Source: a virus
Lineage: Duplodnaviria; Caudoviricetes
Length of the DNA: 42,650 nucleotides
Direction: 5' to 3' (one strand)
Virus record (IMG/VR): IMGVR_UViG_3300025018_000039
Coordinates: 1-42,650 of that record
The position numbers were made by a program, and so were the translations under genes. This document shows, in pieces, positions 1,619 through 40,239 of the stretch (position 1 is the first letter of the stretch; each line of letters starts with the position of its first letter). The notes beneath the pieces were generated by a model. The model ran no database searches and was not told where the DNA came from. It was given only the letters and a program-made list of their open reading frames with translations.

Positions 1619-2095
1619 ATGTTACCTAAAAATGCTAAGAAAGTGTTCACTAAAGTAGACATGACTGCTACTGAACTTTACGGTGACATGACTACTCCTT
1701 GTTGGCCTTTCACTGGCAAACTTAATGCACAAGATAGGCCTTACATACAGATAGGAGGCAAGAAGCTGTTAGCTTATCGTATAACCCATGAACTTGTGTA
1801 TGGTGATGGTTGTCTAGATGGTTTATTAGCAAGACACAAGTGTGACAACCAAATGTGTTGTAGACCAGATCATGTAGAGGGCGGCGATCACGATGACAAC
1901 ATGAACGATATGAAGCAACGTGAACGTCATGGTTTACCGCACCACACTGTGAAGGCTATACGCAAGTTAGCAGCTAAAGATAACGGACCGACTCACGAAG
2001 TTATAGGAGAACTATATGGTATAGCTAGATCAACAGTAACTAACATTGTCAATGGTGACAGATACGAACACGTAAAGGACTTAGAAGATGAGTAA
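1619..2095 (+). CDS. HNH endonuclease with C-terminal HTH
   Basis: CWPFTG...RHKCDNQMCCRPDH...DNMND HNH-type motif; THEVIGELYGIARSTVTNIV HTH. Confidence 0.85.
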   Translation: MLPKNAKKVFTKVDMTATELYGDMTTPCWPFTGKLNAQDRPYIQIGGKKLLAYRITHELVYGDGCLDGLLARHKCDNQMCCRPDHVEGGDHDDNMNDMKQRERHGLPHHTVKAIRKLAAKDNGPTHEVIGELYGIARSTVTNIVNGDRYEHVKDLEDE

Positions 2096-4562: not shown

Positions 4563-4867
4563 GTAAACAAACCAAACCCTTTAATATAACCAAAGCCCGC
4601 GCACCAGACATAGAAAACTTCCGTGCTAGAGACGTAGAGTTCGCTCTTAAAGGTAGAGTAGAACCTGCGTTGCTTCGTGTACTCTGTGGATTGGCAGAGA
4701 AAAACCACCATCTTGAGAAGGCTCTAGCCGAGTTAGCTACAATGCAAGCACAGCTTATTACGATCGTATCACAGTTTAGTGATGTAGCTGACAACATGAA
4801 GAACAAGATGCAATCTATAGAGAAGTCTGTTCAAGGAGAAAACATAGGTGATAACGAAATCAATTGA
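4559..4867 (+). CDS. Hypothetical coiled-coil protein
   Basis: AGGAG RBS; ATGA overlap. Confidence 0.7.
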   Translation: MSKQTKPFNITKARAPDIENFRARDVEFALKGRVEPALLRVLCGLAEKNHHLEKALAELATMQAQLITIVSQFSDVADNMKNKMQSIEKSVQGENIGDNEIN

Positions 4868-5912
4868 GAACGTAGAAGTCTCACTCACCACAGAAGAAGA
4901 TAAACTAACCTTAGAGGCATATGACAACACAAAATTAGTAGCAGTTAACACGTGTCCTACATGGGGCATAGTTCGTTACCATCATCACAAAACGCTTAGT
5001 GGTGGTGGTAGGTCAATGGCATTAGAAGCAGGGAGTGTATCACATGAAGTCTACGCAGCGGTGCGATTGTGGCAAATGCGTAATACGCAAGGACGCCCCG
5101 ATCTTGCAGATGTACACGGTACGCGACTATTTGGAGATACACGACACTCCAAGATGTTATCGAGCATCACTAAAGGATCAGATGAAAGACAACAGAGCCT
5201 TTCCTACTGTTTGGCCGCCCTTGAAACGTCTGACTTCTATGACGACCCTGGAGATAGGCGAAGAACCTTTAGTAATATTGAAGAAGCCTTAATAGCTTAC
5301 ATAGATAGATGGGATTGGAACCGAGCACCTGTATGGATTGGAGACGACAATGAGAGTGTTGGTATTGAGATACCGATTGATGTTACATTTACTTACACTT
5401 TCACTGATGGAAGCACTAAAAAGATTAGGTTCTCTGGTAAGATAGATGGTGTGCATGAAAAAGATGGAGAAGTAATACTGCAAGAAAACAAAACAGGTGC
5501 GAGACTTGATGAAGCTTGGCGCACTAGTTTTGAAATGGCTACACAAGTTACAGGCTATTGCATTGCTGCATCTGTTATCATAGGTAGGCCAATCAACAAA
5601 GCAGAGATACTTGGTATGGCCATCCCGCTTCCTCGCAACTTCGACATGGGTGGGATCGTTAGGGAGAATGTTCGTAGAGAAAGTCATCACTTTGAACGAT
5701 GGTTTAACTGGTTGTTGTGGACTGTAGACCTTCTAGAAACTTATAAAGACGATCTAAACAATGCACCTATGTTTACTCATAGTTGTAACCGATACTTTAG
5801 ACCTTGCTCTATGATACCATATTGTTATGCTGACGATGAAGATAGAGAACAGATACTAACTGAAATGGTTGTGGATGAATGGAGTCCGTTGCATGATGAA
5901 GGAACAACTTGA
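4848..5912 (+). CDS. Cas4/AddB-like PD-(D/E)XK exonuclease with Fe-S staple
   Basis: GKIDGV...QENKT catalytic motif, QVTGY; one N-terminal Cys (NTCP) plus C-terminal CNRYFRPCSMIPYC. Confidence 0.85.
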   Translation: MITKSIENVEVSLTTEEDKLTLEAYDNTKLVAVNTCPTWGIVRYHHHKTLSGGGRSMALEAGSVSHEVYAAVRLWQMRNTQGRPDLADVHGTRLFGDTRHSKMLSSITKGSDERQQSLSYCLAALETSDFYDDPGDRRRTFSNIEEALIAYIDRWDWNRAPVWIGDDNESVGIEIPIDVTFTYTFTDGSTKKIRFSGKIDGVHEKDGEVILQENKTGARLDEAWRTSFEMATQVTGYCIAASVIIGRPINKAEILGMAIPLPRNFDMGGIVRENVRRESHHFERWFNWLLWTVDLLETYKDDLNNAPMFTHSCNRYFRPCSMIPYCYADDEDREQILTEMVVDEWSPLHDEGTT

Positions 5913-6721
5913 TGGAAATTAATCTTACAGGTGTAGAAGCTGTACCACAAGAAAACATGACGCACCGCTTAGCTATGTTACTATGGGGTGATGCTGGTAC
6001 AGGTAAAACTACCTTAGCTTGTTCTGCTCCAGGCAACAAACTGTTAATCAATTTCGATCCTGATGGACCTTCTAGCCTTGGTAAACGTCCTGATGTACAC
6101 GTAGTTGATTTAAGTGGAGAAGGACATATTGTCACCAACAAGTTTCAAACTGATGATCCTTTAGGTTTATCAAGAGCATTAGCAGACAAAGAAAATGTTA
6201 TTGACACAGTTATTGTAGACAGCACTACATCTTATGCACAAGTTGCTACTGATGCAGGTATTGCTGCCACTAAAGGTGCTACTGTTATGCGTCCAAGTCC
6301 CGGCGCTTACGGTGCTAGAAACAACCTAACACTTCGTATGGTTAGTGCTATTAATCGTATTACACAGAAGTATAATAAACATTTTATAATCATATCACAT
6401 GAAGCACCGCCTACTGTAGATAGCGAGGGTAATCTGCTTTATATATCTATGGCATTAGGTGGTTCACTTCCACAATCCATTCCACTTAAGTTAAGTGAGG
6501 TTTGGTACATACAAGATATAGGTGGTAAGAGGCGTATCTTGGTCAGACCGGGACGTACTCGTAAACCGATGAAAACTAGGATGTTTGATACATCAAGCAA
6601 GTCAGAGTTCATTAGTCCTTACGATCAGTTTGGTAAAGATGCACCTTATGGAGCAGGGAGTTTGAAGTCTTATATAGAGGAGTACAAAGCTAATGATTAT
6701 GAAAAGATTAAAGTTCCTTGA
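5909..6721 (+). CDS. Sak4-like (AAA_24) ATPase / single-strand annealing recombinase
   Basis: Walker A GDAGTGKT, Walker B VIVDS, IIISHE; lies between exonuclease and SSB. Confidence 0.8.
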   Translation: MMEINLTGVEAVPQENMTHRLAMLLWGDAGTGKTTLACSAPGNKLLINFDPDGPSSLGKRPDVHVVDLSGEGHIVTNKFQTDDPLGLSRALADKENVIDTVIVDSTTSYAQVATDAGIAATKGATVMRPSPGAYGARNNLTLRMVSAINRITQKYNKHFIIISHEAPPTVDSEGNLLYISMALGGSLPQSIPLKLSEVWYIQDIGGKRRILVRPGRTRKPMKTRMFDTSSKSEFISPYDQFGKDAPYGAGSLKSYIEEYKANDYEKIKVP

Positions 6722-6930: not shown

Positions 6931-6960
6931 TTGTACAACAAAAAGAAAGAAGAGAACACT

Positions 6961-7380
6961 ATGAGTGAAGTACCATCAATTATTGAGTTTTCAGAAGATA
7001 TTTCCAAAGCAGAAGCACCAGTGCCTTTGCCTGTAGGTGAATATCCTTTTGAAATCCGTAAGGCAGAAGGCAAGGTAGCGGCAACAACTGGCAATAAATA
7101 TGCTGCTGTGACCCTATTTGTCTCTGCTGACAATTACCCTGCTGACTACGTGGATGGCAATCCAGACGGTGAGACCTTGATCTATCGCGGCATCTCACTT
7201 GAGGATACTCCACGCGCTCGGCACAATATCCGCAAATTCATGGAAGCAATCGGCGCTCCGATCAAAGGAGCCAAGGTGGACATGAATAGCTGGATCGGTC
7301 TGACCGGCGTTGCAGGGGTGGCCCATGAAGCCTATGAGGGTGAAGATCGTGCTGTAGTAAAGAGCATCAATCCAGCCTGA
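6961..7380 (+). CDS. Single-stranded DNA-binding protein (DUF669-like OB fold)
   Basis: PLPVGEYPFEIRKAE...GNKY...YEGEDRAVV pattern; follows Sak4. ATG 6961 preferred over TTG 6931. Confidence 0.75.
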   Translation: MSEVPSIIEFSEDISKAEAPVPLPVGEYPFEIRKAEGKVAATTGNKYAAVTLFVSADNYPADYVDGNPDGETLIYRGISLEDTPRARHNIRKFMEAIGAPIKGAKVDMNSWIGLTGVAGVAHEAYEGEDRAVVKSINPA

Positions 7381-8110: not shown

Positions 8111-8303
8111 CGCCGCTCGTTTCAATGACGAAGGTGTAATCACATGGGTTGGCCGCGCATTTCACGATGCAAAGCAGCTTGGCTACCTACGTGCTAAAGA
8201 TGTGGAACGGCTTGACCGGCTTGAAAGGACTTATTCTAATGGATTTTACAGCGATAGAGAAACAATTAACTTCCCTAACGGATTTGTTAGGATTTGCTCC
8301 TGA
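8055..8303 (+). CDS. Hypothetical protein
   Basis: GAGGT RBS; fills the gap before the helicase start at 8239. Confidence 0.5.
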   Translation: MTQQLSIQTTARLMAVLNNAARFNDEGVITWVGRAFHDAKQLGYLRAKDVERLDRLERTYSNGFYSDRETINFPNGFVRICS

Positions 8304-9558
8304 CCCACAACAGGTCCAAGCTATCCAGCTTTGTGTAGATATTGTTAAACGGCTCGTAAGTGTGACTGGTGCTGCTGGTACTGGTAAGACCACTATAATA
8401 CGAGCCGTTTATCATATGTTGAAAGATGCTGGTTTTGCTGTTGTACTGTGTGCTCCTACAGGTAAAGCTGCTAAACGTATTACACAAGCTACTGGTATTC
8501 CTGCAATGACGGTGCATCGTCTACTCGAATATACACATCCCGGCGAACCTGACGAAGCTACAGGTAAAGTGTTCAACTCTAGTTTCCCTCGTCGTACTGC
8601 TGCAAACCCTATAGAGTTTGATGTTGTCTTGTGCGATGAATACTCCATGATTAATGTAGAGTTGCATCGTAACTTGATTAATGCACTTCCTAGGGGTGGT
8701 GTGTTACGTATGTTTGGTGATAACAATCAGCTTCCACCTATTGAAACAGACAAGCGACTGCTTAATGAACCTTCTAGCTTCTTAACTATGTTAGACAAGT
8801 TCCCTGCTGTTATTCTTGATGTTGTTCATAGACAGGGTGCAGATAGTGGCATTCTAGGCAACCTGCAACAGATACTACGTGGTCGTATTCCTCGTGCCAA
8901 CGATCAGTGGCATATGCACTTTACAGATGGTCCTGTTGATGTAGTTAAAGACTTAATCTTTTCTGCTCTAGACCATGAAGTAGACTTCTGTGCTATTGAG
9001 AACCAGATCATTACTCCTACCAACAAGACTTGGGTTGGTACTGTAAAACTGAACCCTCTTATCCAAGGTTTGTTCCGTGATGCTATGGACCCTTGCCTTT
9101 ACATACCACGGCACAAGTGGATCGAGGGGATGGATGGTAAGAAGGGCGGTGTTATCCGTGTTTATCAAGGCGACAAGATTATCATTACTAGTAACAACTA
9201 CGACTTAGCTGTGTTCAATGGTGAGAGTGGTATCATTACAGAGATAGGTGCAGATGGCGAAGTAGTCATTGACTTTGGAGACAGAGAGCAAACTATTCCA
9301 CCTTCTATGGACGTACTGAACCGTTACGGTCGCATGGTGTCTGTTGATCCTAGACGAGACATTGATCTTGGTTATGTAATTACTACTCACAAGTCACAAG
9401 GTTCAGAGTACAAGAACGTAATCTACCTTATGAACAAGTCTTGTAGTTGGATGCTTAACAGACGCAACCTTTATACAGCGTGTAGCCGTGCTAAGGAAAA
9501 CTTGCATCTTGTAACAGATCAGAACAGTATTAGTTTGGCTGTTAATAAACAAGGATAG
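8239..9558 (+). CDS. RecD-like SF1B DNA helicase
   Basis: GAAGTGKTT, CAPTGKAAKR, DEYSM, GDNNQLPP, THKSQGSE, LYTACSRAK; GAAAGGAC RBS before ATG 8239. Confidence 0.93.
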   Translation: MDFTAIEKQLTSLTDLLGFAPDPQQVQAIQLCVDIVKRLVSVTGAAGTGKTTIIRAVYHMLKDAGFAVVLCAPTGKAAKRITQATGIPAMTVHRLLEYTHPGEPDEATGKVFNSSFPRRTAANPIEFDVVLCDEYSMINVELHRNLINALPRGGVLRMFGDNNQLPPIETDKRLLNEPSSFLTMLDKFPAVILDVVHRQGADSGILGNLQQILRGRIPRANDQWHMHFTDGPVDVVKDLIFSALDHEVDFCAIENQIITPTNKTWVGTVKLNPLIQGLFRDAMDPCLYIPRHKWIEGMDGKKGGVIRVYQGDKIIITSNNYDLAVFNGESGIITEIGADGEVVIDFGDREQTIPPSMDVLNRYGRMVSVDPRRDIDLGYVITTHKSQGSEYKNVIYLMNKSCSWMLNRRNLYTACSRAKENLHLVTDQNSISLAVNKQG

Positions 9559-9564
9559 GTCTAA

Positions 9565-10158
9565 ATGAACAAGAAAATAATTATCTTCAATGGTCCTTCC
9601 GATGTTGGTAAGTCTGTAGCCATGTCTGCTGTAAACAAACGACTAGCTGATAAAGGCTACCGTGCTGTACAACTAGACATGGCTGCCCCACTTAAAAAGG
9701 CTGTACATGCTTTAGTAGGTACTACAGATCATTGGGACAAGTACGATCACGGAGACGATAAGCCAAATAAAGACAAGGTACATCCTTTAATGTTTGGTCA
9801 CACACCTAGACAACTCTATGTTGAAATGAATGACTTTGCAGAATCTACACTAGGAGAACATGCGTTAGCACGTATCTTGTGTAATCAGTTTACCAACATG
9901 AAGATGGATATTGCGTTGATCCAGTGCGGTACTGTAGTAGAAACACAAGTTATTGTAGATGTGTTTGGTAAAGACAACGTGTTCATTCTAGAGATAGAAA
10001 GAGAAGGTTGTGACTTTGACGACTATAGAGTATATACAGCTTCTAGCGTAAAGTGTGAGTCTCGTAGAGTACCTAACATAGAAGGTGAACGTACATTATT
10101 CTATGAGTTTTGTATCGTAACCATAGCTAAGTTTTTAGGAGTTAATCTAGAGAAATGA
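9565..10158 (+). CDS. Deoxynucleoside monophosphate kinase-like P-loop protein
   Basis: IIFNGPSDVGKS, MAAPLKKAV, TPRQLY motifs. Confidence 0.75.
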   Translation: MNKKIIIFNGPSDVGKSVAMSAVNKRLADKGYRAVQLDMAAPLKKAVHALVGTTDHWDKYDHGDDKPNKDKVHPLMFGHTPRQLYVEMNDFAESTLGEHALARILCNQFTNMKMDIALIQCGTVVETQVIVDVFGKDNVFILEIEREGCDFDDYRVYTASSVKCESRRVPNIEGERTLFYEFCIVTIAKFLGVNLEK

Positions 10159-10334
10159 ACAAATTATCTGTACTAGCTTCAGAAGAGAAAGCTAAAATAA
10201 TTGAAAAGGCTTTTTTAGCAGGGTATCAAGCTGCCAAAGATGCAGGCCACATTTACTTTATGACAACAAGTTCAGAGAGTTTAGAAGAATATTTAGAGGA
10301 AGTAGCAGATGCAGAGAACAATACAAGAGATTAA
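10155..10334 (+). CDS. Small hypothetical protein (59 aa, not in ORF track)
   Basis: ATGA overlap; MNKLSVLASEEKAKIIEKAFLAGYQAAK...; fills the gap before the polymerase. Confidence 0.55.
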   Translation: MNKLSVLASEEKAKIIEKAFLAGYQAAKDAGHIYFMTTSSESLEEYLEEVADAENNTRD

Positions 10335-12783
10335 TGCTGAACTCAAAGAACGTGCTAAGAACTTCAATGTTCCTATAGAGTGTGGTTGTGATGGTGATAT
10401 ATTTGCAGAACTCGCTATCATAGGTGAGCATCCTGGAGAACGTGAACTGTCCCTACAGATGCCTTTCAGTGGTGGTTCGGGTAAGGTGTTGTGGACTGCA
10501 TTACATAAACATGGTATCACTAGACGCAACTGCTTCACTACCAATGTAGTCAAGAGGCATCTTGCAGGTTCAGGTAAGTACAAAGAGAAAGTAAAAGCTG
10601 GTGAGCAATCAATCTACCAGTCTTTGCTGCTTTGGGAACTGTCACAGATGACTAATCTCAAGTACATCTTGTGTCTTGGTAACGCTGCATTGCAAGCTGT
10701 CATGGGTATGAAGGGTATCCTTAACTACCGTGGTACTGTGTTCGACAAGACCCTTACATTTGGTAATCAAGATAACCGTAAGTGTGATGTTAAAGTAGCT
10801 GTGGCACTCAATCCTGCTGCTATACTCAGACAGCCTAAGCACCAACTCATGTTTGACTTTGACATGTGTAGACTTAAGACAGTTATAGATGGCAAGTTTG
10901 AAGTACATGACATTAAAGTTCATACCAATCCTACGTTTGATGAAGCTATGGCTTGGATCGACAAGATGGATCGTGAACAGTTGCTTACTTCATTCGACGT
11001 AGAGACTTCTTCTCAATCTGTAATCTGTTACGGCCTTGCTAACTCTATAGATGAAGCAATGTGTATCAATTTACGTGACCAAACTGGTAACAGGTTTACA
11101 CCTGAACAAGAACTAAAACTCTTGCTGCGATTGGAGAAGTTTCTATGCAGCCCGACTACCCGACTGGTAATGCAGAACGGCATGTACGATGCCAGCTACA
11201 GCTTATTCATGGAACGGATACGGTTAGAGGCGTACCATTTCGATACTATGTTAGCACATCATGCTTTATACCCTTCCCTTCCGCACAACCTAGGGTTCAT
11301 CACTTCACAGTATACTACCCAACCGTATTATAAAGACGAAGGTAAGTTGTGGAAGGAAACAGGAGACATAGATGCAGAGTGGATTTACAACGGTAAGGAT
11401 TGCTGCATAACTCTTGAAGCTGCACACGGTATGCACAAAGAACTAGTTGCTGCTGGTATGGATGACTTGTTCTACAATCACATCATGAAGATACAACCTG
11501 AACTGGTCAAGATGACTGTAGGTGGCGTGTTACTAGATGTAAACCGTAAAGCAGAGCTGTCACAGAAACTTGGTAAAGAGATAGAACAACTCAAAGCTTC
11601 GTTCCTAGAACAAGTACACACTCTTACAGAAGATCACGACTTCAATCCTAATCCTAATTCACCTAAGCAGATGGGAGACTTGTTCTTTACTCGTTTACGT
11701 ATGACAGGTAAAGGTGTATCTACAGATGTGAACAACCGTAAGTACATGAAGGATCATCCACGTACTACAGATGAGCAACGTAAGCTGCTAGATACTGTAG
11801 ACAAGCTTGCAGAAGTAAGTAAGTTTAAGTCAACTTATGTAGACATGCGACTTGATCCAGATAACAGGGCACGCAGTGAGTATAAACAGATGGGTGTTGT
11901 ATCTGCTCCTGGCCGCTTGTCATCTAGTGGTAATGGTTGGGGTACAGGAACAAACTTACAGAACCAACCAGATAAAGCACATGAAATGTTCATTGCAGAT
12001 GAAGGCTACGAGTTTAGTTACTTTGATCTTTCACAAGCAGAAGCAAGAGTTGTGGCATGGCTATATCCTATACCTAAGTGGATAGAAGAGTTTGAACTTG
12101 CACGTGCAGGTGGAGACTTTGACTGTCATAGATCGCTTGCTGCCTCCATGTACAACATGAACTACGAAGATGTACCTAAGTACGACATTGATCCAGAGAC
12201 AGGTAAACACACTATTAGATACATTTCTAAGCGTTGTCGCCACGGTCTTAATTATCGTATGATGGTGGCTAGACTTGCTGCAACGCTTAACATAAGTTAT
12301 AGTGAAGCTGAAACTATCTGGCATATCTACCACAAAACTACACCCGAGGTTAAGCTGTGGTGGGAAGCTACTGTCGATCGAGTACGTAGAGAAGGTAAGC
12401 TTGTCAACCCATTCGGTAGACGGTGGATACTATTAGAACGGTTCGATGAAGAAGCATTAGAAAGTATTGTAGCATTTGTACCACAGAGTACTATAGGTGA
12501 CAAGATTAACCAAGTCATCTACCAATGCCACAATGATCCTGACTGGCCTGTTGATGAAGCTAGGATCACTCTAAACATTCACGATGCTTTGATAGTACTA
12601 AACAAGAAGGAAGTAGGTGATGATGTAAGACAGATAATGAAGAAACATGCAGAGAGTCCTATAGTCATTAAAGGCTATGACAATGTAGAACGAGAGTTAA
12701 TCATTCCAGCAGACTTTAAGAAGTCAGTACCAGATGAATATGGTGTACATCGTTGGAGTAATATGGAAGGAATACAGATATGA
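10309..12783 (+). CDS. polA: Family A DNA polymerase with N-terminal family-4 UDG-like domain and 3'-5' exonuclease
   Basis: UDG-like GEHPG...PFSG.SG; Exo FDVET, NGMYD, YNGKD; GRLSS; motif A DLSQAEAR; motif B R-x3-K-x3-H-x3-Y; motif C IHDA. Confidence 0.92.
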   Translation: MQRTIQEINAELKERAKNFNVPIECGCDGDIFAELAIIGEHPGERELSLQMPFSGGSGKVLWTALHKHGITRRNCFTTNVVKRHLAGSGKYKEKVKAGEQSIYQSLLLWELSQMTNLKYILCLGNAALQAVMGMKGILNYRGTVFDKTLTFGNQDNRKCDVKVAVALNPAAILRQPKHQLMFDFDMCRLKTVIDGKFEVHDIKVHTNPTFDEAMAWIDKMDREQLLTSFDVETSSQSVICYGLANSIDEAMCINLRDQTGNRFTPEQELKLLLRLEKFLCSPTTRLVMQNGMYDASYSLFMERIRLEAYHFDTMLAHHALYPSLPHNLGFITSQYTTQPYYKDEGKLWKETGDIDAEWIYNGKDCCITLEAAHGMHKELVAAGMDDLFYNHIMKIQPELVKMTVGGVLLDVNRKAELSQKLGKEIEQLKASFLEQVHTLTEDHDFNPNPNSPKQMGDLFFTRLRMTGKGVSTDVNNRKYMKDHPRTTDEQRKLLDTVDKLAEVSKFKSTYVDMRLDPDNRARSEYKQMGVVSAPGRLSSSGNGWGTGTNLQNQPDKAHEMFIADEGYEFSYFDLSQAEARVVAWLYPIPKWIEEFELARAGGDFDCHRSLAASMYNMNYEDVPKYDIDPETGKHTIRYISKRCRHGLNYRMMVARLAATLNISYSEAETIWHIYHKTTPEVKLWWEATVDRVRREGKLVNPFGRRWILLERFDEEALESIVAFVPQSTIGDKINQVIYQCHNDPDWPVDEARITLNIHDALIVLNKKEVGDDVRQIMKKHAESPIVIKGYDNVERELIIPADFKKSVPDEYGVHRWSNMEGIQI

Positions 12784-13052
12784 CCCAATACATTAAATTC
12801 CCTTGTGAGATTGTAAACATCACAGATGACTATATAGACATAAAGTACCACGTTAACGATCCCAAGACAGGTGAAGTTGACTATGCTTACTTTGCTATAG
12901 GTCGCATCCCTCTATCTGATCTAGAGAAGAAGCCTGCTAAAACAGCTAAGTCAATCAGTGTAGAACATGCTACTATTACAGATATTGTAGCTAACTTTGA
13001 AGCTGGTAAACAATCTAGTCAGGAAGCTGATGAAGAAGAAATAGGGAAGTAA
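12780..13052 (+). CDS. Small beta-rich protein with acidic tail between polymerase and helicase
   Basis: ATGA overlap with polA; GGAAGGA RBS. Confidence 0.7.
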   Translation: MTQYIKFPCEIVNITDDYIDIKYHVNDPKTGEVDYAYFAIGRIPLSDLEKKPAKTAKSISVEHATITDIVANFEAGKQSSQEADEEEIGK

Positions 13053-13053
13053 C

Positions 13054-14328
13054 ATGGCTAGAGCCAAGTACAAAAGAATAGCTAAAGAGAACACCTTCTT
13101 AAGTGATTATATGGAGTACAATAATGAGACTGAAACGCCTTATGATTACGACTTTTGGACTGGTCTTTGGTTACTATCTTCTGTGCTTGGCCGCCATCTT
13201 TTTGTTGATAGACCTATGGCTCCAGTACGACTAAATATGTACTTGATCCTAGTAGCAGAAAGTGGTATTACTAGAAAGTCTACTAGTGTACGTAAGGCAG
13301 TTAAATTTGTACGTCCTTACTGTCCTAATGAGTTAATAGAAAGCAGCATCACACCTGAAAAGTTAGAAGCACAACTAGCTATGCAAACAGCAGAGAAAGA
13401 GTCCGATGGAAAAGAACCTAGCAGTACAGCAATCATTGCTATCGACGAACTCGTCAAGTTCCTTGGTAAAGAGCAGTACACAAGAGCCATGCCGTCGCTC
13501 CTCACTGATCTATATGACTCACCGGATGCACGATCAGGTGGAGGAACTATGGCCAGAGGCGTCACAAATATTAGGAACGTCTTTGTTAGTTTCCTTTCTG
13601 CTTCGACACCCTCATGGTTGTTGCGAACTGTTAATCCCGATGTTATCCAAGGGGGGTTTACTTCACGAGTGATGTTTGTAGTAAGTGAACGTCCTAAGAA
13701 GTCTGTTCCTTGGCCGGAGAAGCCTAATGAAGAACTATTTAACCGTATCAGCAGCACTCTTGAACGTATTAAAAGGCAAGCAGATAGCATGTCATGTATC
13801 ACAATCTCAAAAGCTGCTAGAAGTCGCTTCTCTACTTGGTATAAGCGTAGAGAACTTCGACGGGACACCTTTCGATCCAGTTGGCAATCCAGAGAGGACG
13901 GACACGTTCTTAAAGTTGCAGCGTTGCTCTGTATCAACGAAGAAGCATGGATCATACAAGATCATCATATCAGAAACGCAATTAAACTCGTTGACCAAAC
14001 CAAAGAGTGGGGTGCATCTATATTCGAGGGAACAGGATCATCCACTAAGGAGGTAATTGGTATAGACAAGTTAAGAGACAAGCTTATTGCTTTAGGTCAT
14101 AATGGTGCAACACAGACTGTACTGAACAGGGTTACAACACGCTACTTCAATGCAGAGTTTCTAGGTACAGTGCTAGAAGTCATGCACGAACTAGACATGG
14201 TGCAAAAGTTTGAAGGCGTTAAGTTGAATAAAGGTAAAGGTAGACCTACTACTATATGGAGAGCCACTAAGACATTAGTAGGTGCTACTGCATTAGATGA
14301 CATTATAGGTCATGTAACACCAGATTAA
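13054..14328 (+). CDS. DUF3987-like AAA+ (MCM-clade) helicase with C-terminal winged helix
   Basis: Walker A AESGITRKST, Walker B IAIDEL, ASTP sensor, GGFTSR arginine finger, GRPTTIW wing. Confidence 0.75.
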   Translation: MARAKYKRIAKENTFLSDYMEYNNETETPYDYDFWTGLWLLSSVLGRHLFVDRPMAPVRLNMYLILVAESGITRKSTSVRKAVKFVRPYCPNELIESSITPEKLEAQLAMQTAEKESDGKEPSSTAIIAIDELVKFLGKEQYTRAMPSLLTDLYDSPDARSGGGTMARGVTNIRNVFVSFLSASTPSWLLRTVNPDVIQGGFTSRVMFVVSERPKKSVPWPEKPNEELFNRISSTLERIKRQADSMSCITISKAARSRFSTWYKRRELRRDTFRSSWQSREDGHVLKVAALLCINEEAWIIQDHHIRNAIKLVDQTKEWGASIFEGTGSSTKEVIGIDKLRDKLIALGHNGATQTVLNRVTTRYFNAEFLGTVLEVMHELDMVQKFEGVKLNKGKGRPTTIWRATKTLVGATALDDIIGHVTPD

Positions 14329-38480: not shown

Positions 38481-38508
38481 ATTATACCGCGAGAAAATAA
38501 GCTGTCAA
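38481..38508 (-). promoter_or_regulatory. Main late sigma70 promoter
   Basis: Minus strand TTGACA-N16-TATAAT with AT-rich upstream element. Confidence 0.8.
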
Positions 38509-38846
38509 GCCCCTTTTTTATATTTATTCACTTCCCCGACTAGGCCGTTAGGAATAGTCGGCGTATCCCATTACCCTTTAACTATGTTTCGTTACTCTTA
38601 CAATCTCTTAACTACACCACGTAACAACTACTAACATTTATATAGAGCACGCTACAGCTTAGGTATGTTTAGATTAGATTAGTTAGCATGTTTATACGCA
38701 GCTAAGTTTATTAGAGAGATAATGGAGGGGTTGACCTTATTGCACACCATCCCAAACCCCACTACACCCCACTTTTAATTTCAACCGGGGGGCTAGGGGG
38801 GTCTAGCTACTAGGTAACGTGCACGATCACACACGTAACGACATGC

Positions 38847-38888
38847 TAACACGTGTTAAGAGACTGCCGTGCCGTAACACGTGTTAAG
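38847..38888. repeat. Direct repeat of palindromic TAACACGTGTTA(AG), 2 copies
   Basis: 38847-38860 and 38875-38888 are identical 14-mers, 28 bp apart. Confidence 0.85.
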
Positions 38889-39069: not shown

Positions 39070-39237
39070 ATGGCTAATGAAACAAAACTTATGCAGCCTA
39101 GATACAACGAAGTTATGGGTTATTGGTATATAGGTGACTATGGCATAACAATCGCTGACAATTTCGAGACAGAGCAACAGGCTTATGATTGGTTGGTTGT
39201 TAATTACCCTGAACATTATTTAGAAGGGAAAGCTTAA
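39070..39237 (+). CDS. Small early protein (55 aa, not in ORF track)
   Basis: GAAGGACTTAAT RBS; MANETKLMQPRYNEVMGYWYIGDYG... Confidence 0.6.
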   Translation: MANETKLMQPRYNEVMGYWYIGDYGITIADNFETEQQAYDWLVVNYPEHYLEGKA

Positions 39238-39238
39238 C

Positions 39239-39334
39239 ATGAATGACACAGAACTAATCCGCAACATAGTTATAGTAGTATGGTTTATATTGATAAGCTG
39301 TATTGCTGTTAGTTACTTAATAGAAAGGCGGTGA
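39239..39334 (+). CDS. 31-aa single-TM peptide (not in ORF track)
   Basis: AAGGGA RBS; MNDTELIRNIVIVVWFILISCIAVSYLIERR. Confidence 0.5.
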   Translation: MNDTELIRNIVIVVWFILISCIAVSYLIERR

Positions 39335-39335
39335 T

Positions 39336-39420: not shown

Positions 39421-40239
39421 ATGACTAAGAACATACCAGAATATATCGAAACTGCTGCACAAGCTGGTAAGGCTTTGACCAGTGCTGATAATCAGACAGA
39501 AAAGGGCTTGGCTCTCGCTGTTGTGTCTATGCACGATGGCTATAACGTCTTTGAATTTGACTATGCTGTTATTAGAAAGACAGATAAGGATGGCACACCT
39601 ACTGAACAAGACGAACTAGTGACAGCAACCATTGATGACTTGTTCACTCCTATTCCAAGCGAGAATGGTAAGAGTGATAGCAAGGCCAATGGCCAACGTC
39701 TCGCTGCATTTGCCAAGCAATTCTTTGGCATTGACGAGTTGTCACCAGCACAGAACACTTGCATCCGGCGTGCTATGACTATGGTCCATTATCTCCGCCA
39801 TGTCGGTGCTGATTGCGCTATCGTTAAGGGTTCACTCGCTGTTCCCTTTGGCGCTTTCCATCCCGCTCCTAGTGCTGACGCTAGCGAGATTGCTAAAATG
39901 CAATACGAGGCGGTCGCTGACAAGCTTATCCCTATGGATAGGAAGGAAGGACGTTCGCTTAATGCCCTGCTGAAACGTAGCGAAAAGGTGTTGCGCGAAG
40001 ATGGCAAGATGCAAACCGCGAAGCGCAACAGTAAGAGCAAGGTAGCTCCTGCCAAGTCCCTTAAGGATAGTATCGCTTTCTTGAACAAGGAACTGGGAAC
40101 GATCGTGAACAGTGACGAAAGCGATGTTGCGTTGACCGATCAGAACCGCAAGAGCCTGTTTCTTTTGCAGCAGCAGATTGCGGCAATCTTTGAAGCTGAC
40201 CCTATGGACAGTGAGGAACTCGAAACTATTGCAGCTTAA
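39421..40239 (+). CDS. Early hypothetical protein (monocistronic)
   Basis: 272 aa; AAAGGACTT RBS; own promoter and terminator. Confidence 0.8.
   Translation: MTKNIPEYIETAAQAGKALTSADNQTEKGLALAVVSMHDGYNVFEFDYAVIRKTDKDGTPTEQDELVTATIDDLFTPIPSENGKSDSKANGQRLAAFAKQFFGIDELSPAQNTCIRRAMTMVHYLRHVGADCAIVKGSLAVPFGAFHPAPSADASEIAKMQYEAVADKLIPMDRKEGRSLNALLKRSEKVLREDGKMQTAKRNSKSKVAPAKSLKDSIAFLNKELGTIVNSDESDVALTDQNRKSLFLLQQQIAAIFEADPMDSEELETIAA

Follow-up and report, generated by a model that had tools for sequence, protein, structure and literature searches.

A phage replication module with a His762 family A DNA polymerase, a stand-alone MCM-like helicase and no recognisable primase: candidate routes to priming

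How does a phage start its DNA chains when its genome encodes no recognisable primase? This question is raised by the window analysed here, i.e., the whole 42,650-nt stretch of the IMG/VR record IMGVR_UViG_3300025018_000039, in which a family A DNA polymerase (10309-12783), a 90-residue protein (12780-13052) and an MCM-like helicase (13054-14328) follow one another on the plus strand. An initial annotation of this DNA had proposed that the three genes form a primase-less replisome, with the 90-residue protein helping the polymerase to prime de novo in the way that the small protein MP helps the polymerase CCPol of SCCmec elements. Our analysis finds that the feature is real and in part already known, and that the proposed subunit is wrong. 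As for the priming itself, the sequence data lead us to suggest, tentatively and at somewhat less than an even chance, that the polymerase starts DNA chains by itself, with no separate primase.

Gene order and primase content of the family

With its 127-nt end repeat the window forms a circular phage assembly, rated as complete (100%, direct terminal repeats), which carries capsid, portal and terminase genes, with the early arm on the plus strand and the structural arm on the minus strand, the two arms meeting at 14.3 kb. All three reading frames stand where they had been annotated, together with the ATGA overlap and the 1-nt gap; the tight coupling that had been stressed does exist, but it is the norm rather than a special trait, since 15 of the 19 listed early-arm junctions fall within -26 to +14 nt and 5 of the 19 are ATGA overlaps. 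When the 59 open reading frames (ORFs) were compared with Pfam and PHROGs (E <= 0.05), neither a primase domain nor an RNA polymerase (RNAP) was found, in agreement with the initial annotation, and the window proteins gave no match to a recombinase, ligase, RNase H or 5' exonuclease in these two databases. Both the N-terminal UDG-like domain of the polymerase and an SSB-like gene at 6931-7380 had been overlooked. Contigs aligned to the locus showed no variants, although the best run among them may itself be where the record comes from.

The absence of a recognisable primase extends to the whole family. Relatives in GenBank include 119X, PaP2, PaMx41, Vibrio VS-ABTNL-3, Desulfofustis LS06, vir526 and the spring phages, while 15 near-complete genomes of relatives (958 genes) were clustered with the genes of the window, and all 16 of these genomes encode the nuclease, Sak4, SSB, RecD2, polymerase and helicase. 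The polymerase gene lies upstream of the helicase gene, within about 2 kb, in all 75 IMG/VR viral loci where the region is present (it is cut in 4 of 79), and it also precedes it in 5/5 GenBank relatives and 13/15 genome-collection loci (one cut, one with the helicase swapped). No primase was found among 289 further cluster representatives of at least 100 aa searched with Pfam, nor among 122 early-arm representatives searched with PHROGs, and, as a positive control, the primases of N4 and Lebethron were picked up by the PHROG scans. Whole-genome scans gave Toprim_2 in 0/23 genomes (the window being outside this set), Prim-Pol in 0/24 and phrog_695 in 1/24 (N4 itself). It has to be said that single profiles miss real AEPs, as Pfam Prim-Pol missed N4 and phrog_695 missed Lebethron, so that a highly divergent primase is conceivable; when the AEP domains of these two phages were used as queries against the ORFs of the family, nothing appeared under E 0.1. 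The gap as such is not new, because 119X was already listed among viruses without a detectable primase by Kazlauskas in 2016 (PMC4889955).

Three phages serve as natural controls. In N4 and Lebethron, where the UDG-PolA carries Phe762, the nuclease-Sak4-SSB module is the same as here, and each genome also encodes a primase-helicase fusion of the AEP type. In the complete 48-kb phage G018:C447 (L126), the gene of a His762 polymerase is interrupted by that of an RNase H, and next comes a RepA-type helicase devoid of a primase part; no primase domain was found in the 44 of its 59 ORFs of at least 100 aa that were scanned, nor in most of the others, which were covered in further scans. Since the helicase was exchanged for the RepA type and still no primase was gained, the primase-free state seems to go with the polymerase and not with the helicase; coming from one clade and one swap, this is no more than suggestive.

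The initial annotation also called the phage lytic, which is plausible; however, the relative Shea, with terminally redundant ends, persists episomally and can do so without integration (PMC13348215), and two related loci carry a tyrosine integrase with an excisionase-like helix-turn-helix (HTH) gene between polymerase and helicase (L020:4443-5498 and L021:4501-5556), so some members may be temperate. The recorded hosts of relatives are Pseudomonas, Vibrio, Microcystis and Methanomicrobiales, the last of these, an archaeon, for L005 (BK063670.1), which has the same module.

The polymerase, the helicase and the gene between them

The polymerase (10309-12783, plus strand, 824 aa) was characterised by Pfam, homolog conservation and Taq alignments. 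Its catalytic acids D573, E578 and D759 are conserved and its Pfam and PDB matches are those of the A family; the 3'-5' exonuclease motifs (D230/E232, D294, D364) are intact, and a family-4 UDG-like domain occupies residues ~29-178 (Pfam E 2e-16). Compared with Taq structures, the polymerase site is altered: H645 stands at the helix-O Phe, R650 replaces the motif-B Gly that follows, and motif C reads HDA instead of HDE, with A760 in place of the second acid. The helix-O Phe is referred to here as position 762, which we take to be the E. coli numbering. Among 72 homologs, H645 and N648 are each kept in 71 and R650 in 65, and His762 is also found in PaMx41, VS-ABTNL-3, MW202489, LS06 and 13/15 genome-collection loci. 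According to Czernecki 2023, N4-like UDG-PolAs carry Phe at 762 (PMC10201439), and this mark of their cluster 17 is replaced by His in the present group (71/72). The accessible parts of two papers on position 762 do not mention His there (PMC9069017, PMC6302109), and a literature search on His762, primer-independent phage PolA, the 119X/PaP2 primase and MCM-like phage priming, with subscription journals and supplements outside its range, returned no account of this polymerase group.

In the UDG domain, the motif-A Glu is kept in 68/72 homologs and the motif-B His has become Asn in 62/72; the domain is likely inactive. In PMC13697223, fused UDG domains are located on the template, still single-stranded, in front of the active site. 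The second peculiarity of the enzyme is a 4-residue deletion relative to Taq after STY510, between STY and the first palm strand, i.e., at the thumb-palm junction. This segment has an identical length in 56/72 homologs, which are all those that fit the length pattern, the other 16 giving no pattern match; of the Phe762 enzymes compared (N4 and MW202455, Lebethron being left out), N4 has a longer segment and MW202455 one just 2 residues shorter. Rice 2023 reported that the last thumb helix of PolA-SSB primases and of T7 RNAP is shorter by one turn, and proposed this for self-priming PolAs (PMC10061031). The deletion found here would resemble that signature, an equation drawn from the text of the paper. 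The polymerase gene is commonly split into two ORFs among relatives (L126:7980-10917 in G018:C447, and L004, L035, L055, L123, L124, L133 and L134), the splitter being RNase H in L126 and other genes elsewhere; in L124 an HNH homolog lies in frame inside the polymerase ORF.

The helicase (13054-14328, plus strand, 424 aa) is a stand-alone DUF3987 or MCM-like (SF6) AAA+ protein by its precomputed PF13148 match, its model and Foldseek. The AlphaFold model (pLDDT 89) consists of a helical N-terminus of ~60 residues, an AAA+ core and a C-terminal winged helix, and it accounts for all 424 residues; there is no AEP or TOPRIM in the chain, so the description of the protein as MCM-like and free of an N-terminal primase domain was correct. 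K75, E132, R205 and R280, the MCM-type Walker A/B and arginine-finger residues, are invariant in 52 homologs. Every PDB entry shown among the top 50 Foldseek ranks is an MCM or CMG protein, and many viral structural neighbours are primase-helicase fusions of 700-900 aa; the protein thus corresponds to the helicase half of such a known fusion, encoded without the other half. The 878 homologs found are 380-460 aa long, and longer, fused forms were absent among 7,997 candidates, which is weak evidence; scans with the single protein against viral contigs, and with the alignment against genome contigs, gave no matches. Matches to PHROG families named 'DNA primase' cover the helicase part only (positions 384-782 of 788 in phrog_3022), and phrog_14296 is the 417-aa PaMx41 helicase itself, so named in the database; this label is unsupported, however the chains are primed.

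Between the two lies the gene which had been put forward as the MP equivalent (12780-13052, plus strand), and here homolog and profile searches and the locus surveys point elsewhere. The 90-residue protein belongs to a rare family of about 10 sequences and is not core: it has two close homologs, and of the 13 matches from a profile search across 1.84 billion representatives, 6 are true family members. The large repeat proteins P0124 and P0130-P0135 among these 13 were discarded as spurious (P0124 and P0130-P0133 after inspection). The gene occurs in 1/84 related loci, 2/16 near-complete genomes and 0/15 further polymerase loci, directly after the polymerase in all three known contexts (the window, L016 and L119). 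In the topology of the helicase tree, a quick tree used for its topology only, the window and L016 group as sisters, and for this reason the gene looks lineage-specific. The slot itself is hypervariable: it is empty in 13/75 loci scattered over the helicase tree, holds no real gene in the five GenBank relatives opened, and is occupied elsewhere by HNH-AP2, GIY-YIG, MazG, integrase, HTH or PEP-CTERM proteins. The gap between polymerase and helicase in the IMG/VR loci (near-duplicates included) is below 100 nt in 13, 100-500 nt in 39 and above 500 nt in 23. A small ORF at this place is not kept across the family.

The properties of the protein are only partly as first described. It does begin with three beta strands, but helices follow in the model (3 sequences, pLDDT 55, poor), and its acidity is not confined to a tail, the pI being 4.66 (4.2-4.7 in the family) with 10 K/R against 17 D/E, or 8 against 9 in residues 1-60. 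Comparison of this poor model with 48,161 chains gave a best Z of 3.9, with none at or above 5 and no OB-fold row prominent; the ESM Atlas held no usable match, and a PDB sequence search with a 9-row profile gave 0 matches. Prediction of a complex with the polymerase scored 0.08 against a mark of 0.32, which gives no answer in either direction. A second small beta family (phrog_8389-like, 60-80 aa, acidic) occupies the slot in L011, L012 and L059 and otherwise lies at varying sites around the replication module (L011:8543-8776, L059:3718-3921, L033:3509, L014:11251, L035:11891, L016:2327, L099:4993); its strand pattern resembles that of the 90-residue protein, with a probability of only 3-5% in profile comparison. 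Because the 90-residue gene is absent from 14/16 genomes, it is not the priming factor of the family, unless unrelated genes, or nothing, substitute for it; it is likely a dispensable, lineage-specific accessory and may have some role beside the polymerase.

How the chains could be started

What then argues for a polymerase that needs no primase? DUF3987 helicases are often fused to a primase, or directly preceded by one, and this is the place that the polymerase occupies in nearly all loci, which favours self-priming because a primase normally stands there (PMC4889955). The swap of the helicase without gain of a primase, the primases of the Phe762 phages, the conserved His762, the thumb deletion and the position of a UDG domain on the template are counted on the same side. 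To hypothesize, a widespread podovirus lineage replaced its primase by one proofreading self-priming PolA, in which His762 and the short thumb admit the initiating nucleotide, the UDG domain or SSB holds the template, and an MCM-like or RepA-like helicase is the partner; in this full form the proposal is slightly more doubtful than self-priming as such. The replisome would consist of the proofreading His762 UDG-PolA, the MCM-like helicase and SSB. By kinship with MCM, the helicase would unwind 3'-to-5' as a ring; the triphosphate of the initiating nucleotide would find space at the shortened thumb-palm junction, and the single-stranded template would be gripped by the UDG domain, which is likely inactive, or by the conserved SSB, a task that falls to MP in the case of CCPol. 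Concatemers could then arise through Sak4, the nuclease and terminal redundancy, and host Pol I and ligase could finish the strands. The SSB meant here (6931-7380, plus strand, likely start Met11, core in 16/16 genomes) is DUF669-like (Pfam E 0.0011), its homologs match the SSB family phrog_378 with E down to 4.5e-6, and it is a candidate template-binding partner.

Several points weigh against this proposal. The features of the His762 enzymes all come from one clade and are not independent, a polymerase gene beside a helicase gene is common in phages, and the thumb deletion is equated with the helix of Rice by inference, with 16/72 homologs outside the length pattern; moreover, the comparison of thumb lengths was made without Lebethron, and the primase content of MW202455 is only partly covered. 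CCPol has no proofreading and is unable to prime on its own (PMC7581432), while the present enzyme keeps all its exonuclease acids (72/72 at D230, D294 and D364) and could erode short primers. The RNase H of L126 and the DNA ligases that some relatives carry (L122, L127, LS06) fit RNA primers at least as well.

A primer-dependent polymerase is the close rival, and an account to which we give a real chance, although a lower one. Here host sigma70 RNAP transcripts (R-loops near divergent end promoters), together with 3' ends made by nicking or by Sak4/nuclease recombination, prime continuous strand displacement. The mitochondrial polymerase-helicase-SSB system is a precedent for priming of this kind. 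The window has no phage RNAP, and its promoter with 12/12 consensus before the late arm (38481-38508, minus strand, by sequence match) would fit transcription by host sigma70 RNAP; TTGAC-type promoters are found in the intergenic zone of relatives, although promoter counts overall are not above chance. The machinery for making 3' ends is at hand in all 16 genomes, namely the PD-(D/E)XK nuclease (4848-5912; Pfam and gene clustering), the Sak4-like ssDNA annealing ATPase (5909-6721; PHROGs and clustering), SSB and the RecD2/Dda-like SF1 helicase (8149-9558; Pfam, PHROGs and clustering; core in the close clade), all on the plus strand. An HNH endonuclease with a C-terminal HTH (1619-2095, plus strand; Pfam, PHROGs and clustering) is a possible nick source in 12/16, and RNase H is present in L126. 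Such priming needs no host-specific contact and so fits the recorded hosts; co-opting of host RNAP for priming is noted in PMC7581432, and inactive UDG domains have been suggested to aid strand displacement (PMC13697223). However, the same recombination module is present in N4 and Lebethron, which have primases, so it is no mark of primase-free replication; the HNH gene is lacking in 4/16 genomes and did not turn up in those parts of five GenBank relatives that were retrieved, and the fixed position of the polymerase and the thumb deletion are left unexplained.

The remaining explanations appear less probable. Recruitment of host DnaG for lagging-strand priming is unlikely in our view: the helicase of SPP1 is stimulated by host DnaG (PMC6302109), and the window, with no ligase, RNase H or 5' exonuclease match, leans on host processing, but its helicase is MCM-like and not DnaB-like, it was exchanged for the RepA type without gain of a primase, and a specific contact would need to track recorded hosts in distant phyla. 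A primase too divergent for profiles and hidden among the ORFs, as raised for 119X in PMC4889955, is quite improbable. The misses of single profiles speak for it, only a minority of the ORFs was folded, and the Atlas model of ORF 39421-40239 gave one weak match (TM 0.28, below the threshold) in a cluster that includes DnaG. This ORF encodes a 272-aa early protein found in 5/16 genomes, whose Atlas clusters comprise hundreds of unnamed viral proteins with no known fold. Against a hidden primase stand the negative scans described above and the fact that none of the unassigned early genes large enough for a primase is shared by all genomes, the ones present in most of them being 75-160 aa and coiled, RHH-like or HNH; the large virion protein shows no conserved acidic motif. 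Least probable of all, with only a slight chance, is that the 90-residue protein is an MP-like OB-fold subunit which makes the polymerase a primase. Its constant place after the polymerase, its three initial strands and the second beta family in the same slot are in keeping with this, and MP sequences are poorly conserved, so that unrelated-looking slot genes could share a fold (PMC10061031). Yet the slot is empty in 13/75 loci and in five GenBank relatives and is otherwise held mostly by unrelated genes, the family is small against 878 helicase homologs and looks lineage-specific, the MP cleft is predicted to be basic (same source) while the 90-residue protein is net acidic, and the phrog_8389-like family sits elsewhere in other genomes and coexists with the 90-residue gene in L016.

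Priming in 119X-like phages has been an open matter since 2016, and the gap now extends to a large family with the middle-gene candidate removed. One enzyme with two features, His762 and the thumb deletion, is singled out, and the family includes cultured phages. If the self-priming proposal is true, this would be the first self-priming, proofreading, full replicative A-family enzyme in the literature searched, and useful for primer-free amplification; if the enzyme does depend on primers, these phages become a model for replication primed by transcripts or recombination.

Further elements and known systems

A dNMP kinase (9565-10158, plus strand; PHROGs and clustering) is present in 11/16 genomes. 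The HNH gene differs from a typical mobile endonuclease in being well conserved and, in the genomes checked for this, located at a similar point of the early arm; two small early ORFs with ribosome-binding sites lie at 39071-39237 and about 39240-39335. In eight distant relatives (L122, L123, L124, L125, L127, L129, L130 and L131) the polymerase gene has a ParB-N6/N4-methylase fusion a short way upstream, in the place taken by RecD2 and the dNMP kinase in the close clade. Genes of a sialic-acid-type sugar pathway (NeuB, epimerase, cytidylyltransferase) are found at L124:1154-3179 and L126:12778-18308.

Between the divergent arms lies a C-run, a T-run and one or two G-runs (38755-38805), seen in 11 of the 12 genomes examined (window, L092, L094, L096, L098, L100, L102, L104, L107, L111, L114), the region being cut short in the twelfth; it is likely a terminus or packaging signal. 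Beside the G-run, a 14-nt palindromic element occurs in two exact copies 28 nt apart (38847-38860 and 38875-38888), a possible operator or origin site. Apart from this pair, a search for iterons gave only chance-level repeats, and the intergenic zone of the 12 genomes has no perfect palindrome arm longer than 13 nt that would suggest hairpin ends.

The closest known phages are 119X, PaP2 and PaMx41 (Jamesmcgillvirus, Fredfastierviridae), which share with the window a 43-kb genome with two converging arms, the Dda helicase, the PD-(D/E)XK nuclease, the RecA-like ATPase, PolA followed by a DUF3987 helicase of ~417 aa, and His762. Helicase identity is just 24%, however; in PaMx41 no gene is annotated between polymerase and helicase, and databases call the helicase 'DNA primase'; its polymerase, helicase and Dda match those of the window weakly, and its structural genes have no BLAST match. 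The N4 module (gp37 helicase, gp39 UDG-PolA, gp42 nuclease, gp43 dns, gp44 Sak4, gp45 SSB) is the same functional set, including a UDG-PolA with a degenerate UDG and a DUF3987-type helicase, but N4 differs in that dns has a C-terminal AEP, in its own RNAPs and in Phe762, and kinship in sequence is remote (polymerase 23% over 276 aa; helicase hhalign 0.7%). AEP-DUF3987 fusions of Gordonia, Brucella and Clavibacter phages and BcMCM have the same helicase fold (phrog_3022, phrog_5311) with a primase part of 300-400 residues, which is absent from the window helicase.

TV-Pols (Iyer 2008, as described in PMC7581432 and PMC4889955) are likewise A-family polymerases proposed to prime from occupying the place of a primase, but they pair with D5 helicases, while the window enzyme has UDG-like and exonuclease domains and the family's helicases are MCM-like or RepA-like. 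Some traits of the window recur in the CCPol-MP and PolA-SSB primases that SCCmec and further elements of Bacillota carry (PMC7581432, PMC10061031): a PolA directly upstream of a helicase where a primase would stand, what may be the same shortening at the end of the thumb, and an SSB-like gene in the module. The likeness to the SCCmec helicase Cch2 drawn in the initial annotation is loose and one of position only, because Rice lists COG3378/D5-type or DUF927 helicases beside PolA-SSB pairs (PMC10061031) and that of the window is DUF3987/MCM-like. Unlike CCPol, the window enzyme is a full replicative polymerase with a UDG-like domain and His762; there is no conserved middle gene, the SSB gene lies 3 kb upstream, and the context is a virion-forming phage without a recombinase instead of a genomic island with one. 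For these reasons (no conserved middle gene, another helicase, another context) the window system lies outside the CCPol-MP family, but it may work alike.

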